Source: a virus (taxonomy: Duplodnaviria > Caudoviricetes). From it: a DNA stretch of 37,672 bases. Of the stretch, positions 21,443 through 24,475 are shown one piece after another. The stretch lies in IMG/VR virus record IMGVR_UViG_3300045580_000209, positions 1 through 37,672 of that record. One strand, 5' to 3'. How positions within the stretch are numbered: position 1 is the first letter of the stretch; each line of letters opens with the position of its first letter. The translations under genes were made by a program, and so were the position numbers. The notes under the pieces are model-generated. The model saw only the letters and a program-made list of their open reading frames with translations, was not told the DNA's origin and did no database searches.

Positions 21443-22447
21443 ATGACGGAAGAGAAGAAGGAAGTATCGTTTGATGTGATGCCCGGAGCGGACCCCATCG
21501 AGCCAGCCCCGGAAAAGGCGTTTGATTTTAACTTTGGGCTGGGTGAGAACACTGAGCCACAGGCTGTCGCTGCAGAACCGGCCACGGAACCGGCCATTGA
21601 AGCACCGGAACCTGTTGCAGCGCCGGAGCCGCAGGCTGAGGTTGAACCGGTTGTTGAACCGGTCGCTCAAGAGGCGCCTCCGCCCGAGGTGAAGAAGGCT
21701 CCGGAACCGGAGACCAAGCAGAAGATGGTGCCTAAGTCGCGCCTAGACGAGGTGTTGGCTAAACAGAAGGCGCTCCAGAAGCAGCTCGATGACCTAATGG
21801 CAGCGAAAACCGCCATTGAAACTGCTCCGGACACCTATGATTTCGCCTCAAAAGAGGTGGAGTATCAGAACATGGTGCTCGACGGGCAGCATGATAAGGC
21901 TGCGGCGCTCCGAGCGGAGATCCGTAAGGCAGAACGAGCTCAGCTTGAGTTTGAGCTGACCCAAAAAGTTGAGCAAAAGGTCACTCAGAGCCAGCAGATG
22001 TCGGCTTTGCAGCAGGCTGCGGCGGAGTTGGAGACGAACTTTCCGGTTTTCGACCGCAACAGCCCCGACTTTAATGAGAAATATACGCAGGAAGTGATTG
22101 ATCTGCGTGACGCATTTATAGTCAAGGGCGAAAATCCTGTCGCTGCACTCTCAAAGGCGGCCAAGTTCGTACTCCGTGAGTACGATTTGGTCGACATGGG
22201 CACCCCTGAAGCCCCGTCTCTTGCGGCTACACCCGCCGCTAAGCCGGCGGTGGTCGATGAGGTCGCTAAGAAGCGAGCGGACGTCGCTAAAAAGCTTAAA
22301 GTGGCTGAATCACAGCCGCCTCAGCTCGTCGGTGAAAGTTCTGCGTCCCGCGGTGAGAAGGCGTTTGACATCTCTACCCTCACTGAGGACGAGTTTAATG
22401 CCCTCCCAGCGGCTACGCTGAAGCGGCTGCGTGGAGATGTCGTCTGA
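21443..22447 (+). CDS. Scaffolding-like protein
   Basis: Acidic Pro/Glu-rich N-terminus, VPKSRLDEV, coiled coil; SD AGGAG; lies between portal and capsid. Confidence 0.8.
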   Translation: MTEEKKEVSFDVMPGADPIEPAPEKAFDFNFGLGENTEPQAVAAEPATEPAIEAPEPVAAPEPQAEVEPVVEPVAQEAPPPEVKKAPEPETKQKMVPKSRLDEVLAKQKALQKQLDDLMAAKTAIETAPDTYDFASKEVEYQNMVLDGQHDKAAALRAEIRKAERAQLEFELTQKVEQKVTQSQQMSALQQAAAELETNFPVFDRNSPDFNEKYTQEVIDLRDAFIVKGENPVAALSKAAKFVLREYDLVDMGTPEAPSLAATPAAKPAVVDEVAKKRADVAKKLKVAESQPPQLVGESSASRGEKAFDISTLTEDEFNALPAATLKRLRGDVV

Positions 22448-22731
22448 TGGCTACGCGTGACCCGCGTTTAGCCCGAGCTGGTGTCTCTGGCTACAACAAA
22501 CCTAAGCGTACACCTAGCCACCCGACAAAAAGCCACGTAGTTGTGGCTAAGTCTGGTGACCAAGTTAAGACGATTCGCTTCGGACAGCAGGGCGTCAGCG
22601 GCTCCCCCCGTAAAAAGGGGGAGTCGGAAGCCTATCGCAACCGGCGAGAGTCGTTCAAAGCCAGACACGCGTCGAATATTGCTAGGGGCAAGATGTCTGC
22701 TGCGTACTGGGCGGATAAAGTTAAATGGTAA
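22447..22731 (+). CDS. Small basic phage protein
   Basis: GYNKPKRTPSHPTKSHVV...IRFGQQG...SFKARH...SAAYWADKVKW; TGATG coupling. Confidence 0.85.
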   Translation: MATRDPRLARAGVSGYNKPKRTPSHPTKSHVVVAKSGDQVKTIRFGQQGVSGSPRKKGESEAYRNRRESFKARHASNIARGKMSAAYWADKVKW

Positions 22732-22741
22732 GGGGGAAGTA

Positions 22742-22921
22742 ATGGCTAAGAACTGGATCAAGGACGCGATTAAGAAGCCCGGTGCCCTGCGTAAGAGCAT
22801 GGGCGTTAAGAAGGACGAAAAGATCCCGGCTAAAGAGCTGCGTGCAGCGGCTAAGAAGCCGGGTAAGACTGGCCAGCGCGCTCGTTTGGCTATGACCCTC
22901 CGCAAGATGAACCGAGGTTGA
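22742..22921 (+). CDS. Small very basic protein (59 aa)
   Basis: MAKNWIKDAIKKPGALRKSMG...RARLAMTLRKM; SD GGGGAAG. Confidence 0.8.
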   Translation: MAKNWIKDAIKKPGALRKSMGVKKDEKIPAKELRAAAKKPGKTGQRARLAMTLRKMNRG

Positions 22922-22923
22922 GT

Positions 22924-23025
22924 ATGAAACCCTGTCCTAACTGCCCAACGCCCTCTCGCTGCGCTAAGGCGGGAAAATGCCTGAAGAAAACTGCTAGTGG
23001 GCCGCGTAAAAAAAGCAAATACTAG
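22924..23025 (+). CDS. Tiny basic Cys-rich protein (33 aa, not in the ORF track)
   Basis: MKPCPNCPTPSRCAKAGKCLKKTASGPRKKSKY*, SD GAGGT. Confidence 0.6.
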   Translation: MKPCPNCPTPSRCAKAGKCLKKTASGPRKKSKY

Positions 23026-23054
23026 TTGCGAACTTTATAATCTGTTGTTAATCT
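23026..23054 (+). promoter_or_regulatory. Putative sigma70 promoter for the capsid transcript
   Basis: TTGCGA-17nt-TAATCT (also TATAAT at 23036) in an AT-rich patch; start would fall near 23061. Confidence 0.5.
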
Positions 23055-23064
23055 ACAACTGAAC

Positions 23065-23256
23065 TCGTCCGTTGGAACGATATCCAGCCGTGTCGCACAC
23101 GTAAAAAACGTGTTTGAACCCCGCCTGCGTAGGCGTTAAACCCGCCGAGATCGCGTCTCGTGAACACGCGCTAAGTCGTTACCCCACGATACGGGAGAAC
23201 GGGTTAGCCGCACCAAAGAAGTCGGCAATAGCCTGGTAATGCAGGTGCATTACTGG
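23065..23256 (+). ncRNA. Structured capsid leader: tandem H-type pseudoknot-like units plus a hairpin
   Basis: Six successive stem-loops whose loops pair with sequence just downstream; details in findings. Confidence 0.65.
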
Positions 23257-23289
23257 ATTTTGTAACGCAATTTATACAGGAGAAGCCAA

Positions 23290-24432
23290 ATGGCTCTTAC
23301 TAATTTTGCGGCGCTGACTAGTGAACAACTCACGGCGTGGAGCCGTGATTTCTGGCGCGTCGCTCGCAATATGTCGTTTGTGAACCAGTTCGCTGGTTCG
23401 GGTTCCAACGCGATGATCACGCGTGTCACTGAGCTGACCAAGTCGGACAAGGGCACGAAGGCCGTTATCACGCTGCTCGCCGACATGACCGGTGACGGTG
23501 TGACGGGTGACAACACCCTCGAGGGCAATGAAGAGGCGCTCCGCGCTTACGACATCACCATCGAGCTCGACCAGCTCCGTTTTGCGAACCGCATTGCCGG
23601 TCGCCTTGCGGATCAGAAGAGCGTGGTGAACTTCCGTGAGACGAGCCGCGACGCGCTTGCGTATGCGATGGCTGATCGTATTGACCAGCTCTCGTTCCTT
23701 ACGCTTGCCGGTGTGGCGTACACGCACAAGACGAACGGTGCGCTTCGCAGCGTTTTGGCCTCGGGCCAGAACCTGTCGAACCTCGAGTTTGCCGCTGACG
23801 TGTCGGCCCCGACGGCATCGCGCCACCGCCGAGTTTCGGGCGACAACATTGTCGCGGGTGACACGACGGCCGTGACGGCGACGGATAAGCTGAAGTATCG
23901 GCACATCGTCGACCTCAAGGCTTACGCCAAGGATCAGTATATCCGTGGCGTGCGTAGCGCTGGCAACGACGAGATGTTCCATCTCTTCGTTACCCCGCAG
24001 CAGATGGCCGCGCTCAAGCTTGATTCGGACTTCCTTGCCAACGTGCGTAACGCTGGCATCCGCGGTCCGAGCAACCAGCTGTTCGCGGGTTCGAGCTCGC
24101 TGATGGTTGACGGCGTGATGGTCCACGAGTTCCGCCATGTGTTTAACACCTCTGGTGCGACGACTGGTACCTCGGCTAACGCCGGTGCGGCTGGCTACAA
24201 GTGGGGTGCGAACGCCAACATCGTTGGTGCGCGTGCTCTGTTCTGCGGCGCCCAGGCTCTTGCCATGGCGGACATCGGTCTGCCGGATATCGTCGAAGAC
24301 ACCTTCGACTACCAGAACCAGTCTGGTATCTCGATCGGCAAGATCTTCGGTCTCCGTAAGCCGAAGTACAACAGCGATGTCACTGCCAGCGTCCAGGACT
24401 TTGGCGTGATCGCTCTCGATACGGCTCAGTAA
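23290..24432 (+). CDS. Major capsid protein (N4-gp56/DUF4043-like)
   Basis: ELTKSDKG, GVTGDNTLEGNEEAL, IELDQLR, LFCGAQALA, DFGVI; strong codon bias; SD CAGGAG; terminator follows. Confidence 0.93.
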   Translation: MALTNFAALTSEQLTAWSRDFWRVARNMSFVNQFAGSGSNAMITRVTELTKSDKGTKAVITLLADMTGDGVTGDNTLEGNEEALRAYDITIELDQLRFANRIAGRLADQKSVVNFRETSRDALAYAMADRIDQLSFLTLAGVAYTHKTNGALRSVLASGQNLSNLEFAADVSAPTASRHRRVSGDNIVAGDTTAVTATDKLKYRHIVDLKAYAKDQYIRGVRSAGNDEMFHLFVTPQQMAALKLDSDFLANVRNAGIRGPSNQLFAGSSSLMVDGVMVHEFRHVFNTSGATTGTSANAGAAGYKWGANANIVGARALFCGAQALAMADIGLPDIVEDTFDYQNQSGISIGKIFGLRKPKYNSDVTASVQDFGVIALDTAQ

Positions 24433-24440
24433 GCCGCCTA

Positions 24441-24475
24441 GGGGGCCCCCTCAACACGAGGGGGCCCTCGTTTTT
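24441..24475 (+). terminator. Rho-independent terminator after the capsid gene
   Basis: GGGCCCCCTC-AACAC-GAGGGGGCCC followed by TCGTTTTT. Confidence 0.85.

Follow-up and report, generated by a model that had tools for sequence, protein, structure and literature searches.

The capsid locus and its leader

The window, meaning the whole stretch of DNA analyzed here, is a linear phage record of 37,672 nucleotides (37.7 kb; IMGVR_UViG_3300045580_000209) in which genes for terminase, portal, and major head protein are annotated. Upstream of the major capsid gene lies a gene that has no PHROG match and that is probably the scaffold gene, judging from its position and from the usual makeup of such operons. 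It is followed by three small basic open reading frames (ORFs) and then by a noncoding leader that runs to the capsid start. This leader holds a predicted promoter, six H-type pseudoknot units (in each, the loop of a first stem, S1, pairs with a downstream strand to form a crossing stem, S2), an optional hairpin, an A/U-rich stretch, and a predicted hairpin at the start codon, as follows.

22447-22731, 22745-22921, and 22924-23025: three small basic ORFs from the scaffold-like gene to the promoter, matching phrog_7595, phrog_20603 (weakly), and no family, respectively
23026..23054, + strand: predicted sigma-70-type promoter (-35 TTGCGA, 23026-31; 17-nt spacer; -10 TAATCT, 23049-54)
23066..23088, + strand: unit 1, class I; S1 23066-68:23077-79, S2 23071-75:23084-88
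23089..23110, + strand: unit 2, class II; S1 23089-92:23098-101, S2 only 23094-95:23109-10; A-rich linker
23122..23145, + strand: unit 3, class II; S1 23122-25:23132-35, S2 23127-29:23143-45
23146..23170, + strand: unit 4, class II; S1 23146-50:23156-60, S2 23152-55:23167-70
23177..23195, + strand: unit 5, class I; S1 23177-79:23186-88, S2 23183-85:23193-95
23201..23226, + strand: unit 6, class III (GG/CC base, UU loop 1); S2 23207-10:23223-26
23233..23256, + strand: optional hairpin, terminator-like in the window
23257..23279, + strand: A/U-rich stretch before the Shine-Dalgarno sequence (SD), predicted single stranded
23280..23298, + strand: predicted hairpin of -7.3 kcal/mol that takes in the SD (AGGAG, 23278-82), the spacer, AUG, and codon 2
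23290..24432, + strand: major capsid protein gene (phrog_334/PF13252; N4-gp56 family by source names)

The leader array is present in a single copy per genome record, and chains of up to six predicted units precede the capsid gene across a large group of aquatic phages. A strong terminator-like hairpin sits directly 3' of the capsid gene, at 24441-24469. By capsid identity, the closest cultured phages are Pseudomonas KPP25/phiR18 (54%), Aeromonas phiA008 (47%), and Acidovorax AP1 (45%). At least half of the sampled sequence words are present in seven public runs, six of which are freshwater RNA libraries. The named hosts of relatives are proteobacterial, and we infer a proteobacterial host for the window phage. 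Five phage contigs (L167, L169, L170, L172, and L173) are binned in metagenome-assembled genomes labeled as archaea or unrelated phyla, which is probably binning contamination, and these placements were excluded as host evidence. In another relative, L084 (MW202615), intron-like insertions apparently interrupt the capsid gene (646-2888), and one of them contains an endonuclease-like ORF.

Six small predicted pseudoknots in one leader

The array spans 161 nt. Its units are 20 to 26 nt each, differ in sequence, and hold 6 to 9 base pairs apiece. Unit 2 adjoins unit 1 and unit 4 adjoins unit 3 with 0-nt junctions, and coaxial stacking of each couple is predicted, giving 14 and 16 bp. A preliminary description of this one sequence had proposed the six units, and all of them were found at the positions it gave. 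It had also cautioned that the individual stems are short, and the single-sequence support is indeed modest. A generic H-type descriptor that is blind to sequence (stems of at least 3 bp, at least 7 bp in total, nonoverlapping units) returns exactly these 6 units on 23065-23228, against a mean of 1.5 and a maximum of 4 in 500 dinucleotide shuffles. The excess over shuffles that the description anticipated thus appears at this setting, but not at a stricter one: with an 8-bp cut only 2 units pass, a number that 13% of shuffles reach and that is not significant. The nested minimum free energy (MFE) fold of the leader is unremarkable (z, -1.72; 13 of 200 shuffles equally good). The decisive support for the array is covariation across homologues.

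Covariation across relatives

Relatives were collected in two ways. (i) By capsid protein, the best 80 of 595 candidates were taken, plus 19 genome loci. (ii) A sequence pattern of units 5 and 6 brought in 120 loci. Single-protein scans with P0121 and P0135 gave 2 and 1 loci only. From 193 leaders, 15 fell outside the parsing anchors and 3 were too short, the remainder amounting to 95 distinct rows; exclusion of L170, which has a long insertion, left 94 nonredundant rows, 49 of them chosen on fixed unit 5-6 letters.

Over these 94 rows, 93.3% of the 4399 cells of the named structure pair and double changes occur in 25 of its 47 pairs, whereas pairing in the same rows falls to 28 to 46% in slid registers. 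In a blind G-test with a tree-based null, predicted pairs make up 15 of the top 17 entries, with E values of <0.05 for five pairs; the two nonpredicted entries are cross terms of unit 2. A capsid-gene tree of 77 of the 94 rows requires at least 108 independent Watson-Crick pair swaps. Of these, 85 are in the crossing stems (44, 0, 9, 2, 30, and 0 in units 1 to 6) and 23 are in the S1 helices, which are 94.7 to 100% paired. G-U cells exceed A-C cells by 114 to 40, which fits RNA from the plus strand. Palindromic binding sites at the DNA level are disfavored by this excess and by the crossing-stem covariation.

How do the individual units fare? Covariation of each loop with its downstream partner, proposed at the outset as the check on the array, is strong in units 1, 3, and 5, weak in unit 4, and absent in units 2 and 6, where S2 is invariant. 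Double changes affect all five core pairs of S2 in unit 1, three of three in unit 3 (91% paired), and four of four in unit 5, where S2 is 4 bp long in most relatives. With their many swaps, these three units are well supported as pseudoknots. Unit 4 has an S1 that is 99.8% paired, with 7 swaps, and an S2 consisting of a 3-bp core, the fourth pair being missing in 63 of 94 rows. Because the crossing stems of units 2 and 6 do not vary within the clade, covariation is no evidence for or against them. Unit 2 is present (its S1 is 100% paired, with 9 swaps), but the crossing register originally drawn for it, CGC:GTG, is wrong, its first pair occurring in 6 of 94 rows; the stem is instead CG:CG, kept in 94 of 94. 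Unit 6 is likewise present, but its homologues pair as G-G-N:N-C-C, one base off the original register. The third of these pairs has 3 swaps among relatives and is a mismatch in the window; S2 is invariant here partly by construction, because 49 of 94 rows were retrieved with a search pattern that fixes the unit 6 letters. The unit is missing from L023-L027, and in L170 (about 2930-2964) a hairpin is inserted in its linker, a similar hairpin elsewhere coming after the unit. An outer U-A pair of S1 had also been drawn in units 1 and 5; it is kept in just 59 and 73 of 94 rows, respectively, and S1 in these units is therefore 3 bp with a 3- to 4-nt A-Y-A linker. Judged by sequence comparison, the array is a conserved chain of six minimal predicted H-type pseudoknots, real and strongly covarying.

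Module classes and their spread

The units fall into three classes. Class I (units 1 and 5) has a CGN stem, a long crossing stem, and an A-Y-A linker; class II (units 2 to 4) has a 4- to 5-bp CG stem, a short crossing stem, and a UWAAA linker; class III (unit 6) has the GG/CC base. Certain invariant letters are common to every module, and capsid leaders differ in the number, order, and crossing-stem sequence of their modules. In the AP1 clade the order is II-III-I (37 leaders parsed), and the cultured Acidovorax phage AP1 itself has a three-unit version. Unit B of this clade, which is like unit 6, has a pair that is A-U in 21 and G-C in 15 of 36 cases, and the third pair of unit A is U-A in 19 and C-G in 16 of 35. 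Automatic parsing of the crossing stems of units A and C gave inconsistent stems and was dropped as evidence. In L083 and L087-L166, a larger hairpin lies directly after the stop of the upstream gene. By a loose pattern, 53 of 63 leaders have a GGUG-like tract just upstream of unit A with which the loop of this hairpin can pair, possibly making a fourth, bigger pseudoknot.

At more distant loci (42 to 57% capsid identity), 74 of 81 leaders have 1 to 4 detected units with freely changing crossing stems. The third S1 pair, which the descriptor does not require, is Watson-Crick in 56 of 69 of these units against 37% expected, 12 ambiguous units having been dropped. The density of class I modules is 7.23 per kb in clade-1 capsid leaders, 0.58 in AP1 leaders, and 3.95 in distant ones; outside the leaders of these loci, and on the reverse strand, it is 0.02 to 0.04 per kb. 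This enrichment is partly circular because the descriptors were written after the sequences had been seen. The descriptor finds no unit in the leaders of KPP25 and Bcep22, in 13 of 62 AP1-clade leaders, or in 5 of 75 distant ones.

A covariance model run over 100 sources gives 13 matches, all 13 in capsid leaders, and recovers six held-out divergent clade-1 leaders at 74 to 167 bits; it missed all AP1-clade loci and cultured phages in the set. Class I units, with weak scores, are present in prophage-like loci of Motiliproteus and Vreelandella, and three Negativicutes loci with about 30% identity are almost without a leader. The unit 5-6 pattern is followed by a capsid gene 52 to 82 nt downstream in 107 of 120 matches, the others being 5 arrays truncated where the contig stops and 8 matches with no other units by eye. 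A second pattern, made from a distant class I unit, was rejected as unspecific: a capsid gene follows 23 of its 120 matches, each of them with a complete crossing stem; of the others, 36 pass a lax, G-U-rich test but have no capsid gene, and 61 fail. One of its matches, L440, is antisense within an ORF.

Leader or separate RNA?

The preliminary description had placed a putative promoter just before the array. It is absent from a consensus promoter scan, but it is conserved: a TAnnnT box (loose pattern) lies 7 to 13 nt upstream of unit 1 in 93 of 93 clade-1 leaders, 91 have a -35 element beginning with TTG, and the spacer is 17 nt in 79. Transcription is predicted to start at about 23061-62, and the array begins within about 5 nt. 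Among distant leaders, 25 of 65 have a promoter-like site ahead of their first detected unit (control, 2%); among AP1-clade leaders, 0 of 24 do. As for the hairpin after unit 6, it reaches -6 kcal/mol or lower in 83 of 93 leaders, with at least 5 U in 13, and 6 have no hairpin. It is thus not a conserved terminator, which makes a 5' UTR the likely identity of the region. In two RNA libraries, individual contigs reach from the array to the capsid gene, one covering 23071 to past 25000 and another 23046-23777; this denotes presence in RNA libraries and is not proof of one transcript. Two RNA-library contigs stop at 23071 and 23075, where their loose ends look like adapter, and the depth upstream of these points is lower, though contigs cannot show start, strand, or level.

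Might the array instead be a separate RNA of about 195 nt, or a source of monomers acting in trans, for instance as a pseudo-ToxI-like decoy for the nucleases of type III toxin-antitoxin systems that cause abortive infection? The promoter, tandem pseudoknots, and hairpin of the window resemble a toxIN-type layout. The contig over 23075-23283 is also the deepest in one RNA library, although contig depth cannot rank parts. Phage pseudo-ToxI repeats are a precedent, being small tandem pseudoknots as well, but ToxI consists of near-identical 36-nt repeats that are cut to monomers, whereas the units here are heterogeneous, partly abutting, and placed before a capsid gene (PMC3475682). They are not sequence repeats, their length is 20 to 26 nt rather than 36, and at two junctions (1/2 and 3/4) they abut without tails. 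The features of a ToxI-type antitoxin, namely nearly identical tailed repeats of about 36 nt and a conserved terminator ahead of a toxin gene, are absent, and no ToxI match appears at E values up to 10. In addition, the array has a fixed position before the capsid start, and single RNA-library contigs continue from it into the capsid gene. Trans action of this kind is very improbable, and the standalone noncoding RNA that had been suggested at the outset is unlikely, given the U-tract in 13 of 93 leaders, the hairpin missing from 6, and the AP1-clade promoter count. The simplest reading is that the array is likely the front of the capsid mRNA 5' UTR.

Two further roles would begin with the nascent transcript or with a small molecule. 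HK022 put is a nascent-RNA antiterminator, and an array about 5 nt from the predicted start, with the strong terminator at 24441-69 after the capsid gene, could suit such a function. A metabolite-sensing tandem aptamer is suggested by the outline of unit 2, that of a small, preQ1-like riboswitch pseudoknot with an A-rich loop 3 (PMC7038950). Both ideas have to contend with AP1-clade arrays that lack a promoter and with the variable module order, and the aptamer, in addition, with loops of 5 to 8 nt that leave little space for a pocket and with no riboswitch match in Rfam. Together they are the kind of explanation to which we give hardly any weight.

The A/U-rich stretch and the start codon

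The 20 nt upstream of the SD are at least 70% A/U in 83 of 93 leaders. In 34 of 93 clade-1 leaders, the last 25 nt ahead of the SD include a CGCA tetramer (23266-23269 in the window). The SD itself was assumed to be open, an assumption contradicted by a median unpaired probability of 0.22 (0.5 or more in 3 of 93). The MFE around the start is -7.2 in clade 1, -6.8 at distant loci, and -4.7 in the AP1 clade; across 339 control starts it is -4.3. The pairing partner of AUG and codon 2 is the spacer, whose sequence changes along with the codon: it is GCC in 100 of 133 G-GC starts, in 2 of 18 G-CU starts (AGC in 10), and in 2 of 17 G-UC starts (GAC in 7), counts that ignore kinship. A reverse complement is found in the spacer of 43 to 69% of capsid starts versus 5 to 9% of control starts. 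When native spacer/start pairs are set against swapped ones, the outcome is 0/200 at distant loci and, weakly, 9/200 in the AP1 clade; the full clade-1 set shows no effect (101/200), but nearly all its starts are AUG-GC, so the test has no power there. No such tracking is seen in control genes of these loci. The start-codon hairpin is thus predicted to be weak, capsid specific, and covarying across clades, and it is new here. The loop strand of unit 6 (23206-23210) is also complementary to the start-codon region (23291-23295), which offers the same GGC as its own partner; judging from the letters, this pairing would allow an alternative fold that frees the SD. Unit B of the AP1 clade has, by eye, a similar but inconsistent complementarity to the start region.

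What could such an arrangement serve? One answer is an S1-dependent standby site, in which the pseudoknots and the A/U strand would load the 30S subunit via protein S1, which would melt the start hairpin; efficient translation would then likely be confined to messages with an intact leader. The tisB standby site has a 5' H-type pseudoknot and a single-stranded region before a sequestered ribosome-binding site (RBS), and S1 binds pseudoknots (PMC7708055, PMC6690012). All three elements (pseudoknot, single-stranded A/U region, and structured RBS) are predicted here. However, tisB needs just one pseudoknot, its RBS is strongly sequestered, and it is under IstR-1 antisense control, of which none is seen here (PMC7708055, PMC6690012). 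S1 binding drops as pseudoknot stability rises (PMC7038950), the start hairpin of the capsid leader is weak, in AP1-clade leaders hardly stronger than at control starts, and the swap test is without power in the larger clade-1 set. We regard a standby site as doubtful.

Another possibility is an autogenous operator: capsid or scaffold protein would bind the repeated CG/CG and A-linker epitope cooperatively and so tune capsid synthesis in the way that gp32 tunes T4 gene 32, the bound head protein likely spreading over the A/U stretch or locking the start-codon hairpin. The leader is laid out like that of T4 gene 32, where a pseudoknot 67 nt upstream of the start is followed by an A+U-rich stretch (PMC3014915). 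The last unit ends 62 nt before the AUG in the window and lies 34 to 62 nt before the start in 57 of 74 distant leaders. The invariant letters of every module, the single array per genome record, and the capsid-specific, covarying start hairpin with its spacer complement also speak for an operator. Three module classes in 1 to 6 detected copies are, however, a poor fit to a symmetric oligomer, and vertical inheritance alone accounts for the linkage to the capsid gene. The basic proteins encoded next door had been offered as partners as well, but they are limited to clade 1 and not codistributed with the array: the first of the three ORFs (22447-22731) is present in 56 of 64 clade-1, 0 of 70 AP1-clade, and 0 of 56 distant loci. 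The operator is a possible reading that we would not put forward as the likely one. In a bolder form, rather unlikely in our judgment, the modular minimal pseudoknots with their shared CG/CG and A-linker surface would be a multivalent head-protein sensor that switches the start hairpin; if so, it would couple capsid synthesis to procapsid assembly across the whole phage family.

A possible barrier to RNase E scanning

Whatever the mechanism, control of capsid output in cis is very likely. The reading we prefer, tentatively and by analogy, is that the array would act in cis as a barrier that keeps host RNase E from scanning in from the 5' end, which would raise capsid output. Protection of the capsid mRNA was also among the roles that the preliminary description had suggested. 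The leader would run from promoter through pseudoknot chain, optional hairpin, and A/U-rich strand to a weakly paired start. The stacked pseudoknots, with A-rich linkers predicted to pack on the invariant CG/CG stem base, would block this scanning; they would thereby shelter the A/U-rich stretch where ribosomes load, along with the capsid message downstream, and more capsid would be made. That the enzyme opposed is RNase E, and that mRNA half-life changes, are steps that we infer.

The precedent comes from 5' UTRs in Escherichia coli, where H-type pseudoknots hinder scanning by RNase E to a degree proportional to their number of coaxial base pairs; 8 bp is the least obstacle, 15 bp is at the plateau, composition matters little, and protection levels off above about 50 Å (PMC9943677). 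T4 gene 32 mRNA, with its leader pseudoknot, has been reported as the most stable T4 mRNA (PMC3014915). The array sits where a scanning obstacle would have to be, between the predicted 5' end and the A/U-rich stretch, although its stacking is a prediction. Obstacles of this sort are expected to be additive, so the variable number, order, and crossing-stem sequence of the modules would fit a barrier. Given the plateau above about 50 Å, six units seem more than needed, and in the AP1 clade, where no promoter precedes the array, a barrier would act only after upstream cleavage.

What of the features that a barrier does not call for? The conserved start-codon hairpin is left unexplained by it. The invariant CG/CG step and the AYA and UWAAA linkers exceed what pairing needs, and on their letters they could be a protein epitope. 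A barrier would leave them unexplained unless minor-groove triples form, as they do in the BWYV pseudoknot. Invariant letters and start hairpin together favor a protein operator of the gene 32 type or a tisB-type S1 standby; the RNase E barrier and the S1 standby are compatible with each other.

Relation to known systems

The array had not been recognized as a named family, and searches agree: at the gathering threshold, Rfam 15 gives 0 matches in the window and 8 related loci, and relaxing the cutoff to E values up to 10 brings in just freshwater-2, which scores 18 of 49.9 bits across the hairpin and SD, and the S15 leader. In 50,697 phage records, blastn of the leader finds 4 chance 29-nt matches only. 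No published description of this capsid leader was found in literature searches, and the passages of Weinberg 2017 consulted make no mention of capsid (PMC5737381). Fremin et al. 2023 list DNAVirus_3698, an unnamed, automatically derived 85-nt candidate with 180 sequences from freshwater and marine sources, which lies within 25 bp of a capsid_maj_N4 gene 37 times and has Haliea as the predicted host for 4; DNAVirus_865 likewise precedes capsid_maj_N4 genes (PMC10690425). Compared by description only, DNAVirus_3698 may cover part of the leader, its habitats fitting the clade, though it has 85 nt and 2 covarying bases against the 161-nt array here.

Among characterized leaders, the T4/T2 gene 32 operator is alike in having a phage leader H-type pseudoknot some 60 to 70 nt before the start and then an A/U-rich stretch. 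It differs in having one pseudoknot rather than a modular chain and in its product, a single-stranded-DNA-binding repressor rather than a major head protein; leader binding is demonstrated there, while for the capsid leader it is a candidate only. The tobamovirus upstream pseudoknot domain also strings together consecutive small UTR pseudoknots in a stacked three-unit geometry, with the host factor eEF1A binding PK2/PK3, but it belongs to the 3' UTR of a plant RNA virus. The work of Richards and Belasco 2023 shares 5' UTR H-type pseudoknots with 8 to 15 coaxial bp; the passages cited here concern engineered reporters with single viral or telomerase pseudoknots and describe no constitutive natural chain (PMC9943677). 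Going by its sequence, the modular pseudoknot chain is newly described among pseudoknot-bearing mRNA leaders, with a putative function.

Overall, why should a phage place such a chain before its capsid gene? Lytic double-stranded DNA phages make capsid protein in large excess over other late proteins, and this has mostly been credited to promoters and strong RBSs. A family-wide, evolvable pseudoknot chain at the capsid leader would add a layer of RNA structure to capsid control. If the chain is a barrier to RNase E, it would be a natural, constitutive use of a mechanism demonstrated mostly in reporters and riboswitches; it would also offer a compact element with which to stabilize bacterial mRNAs. 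If the head protein binds the array, it would be a new autoregulation circuit.
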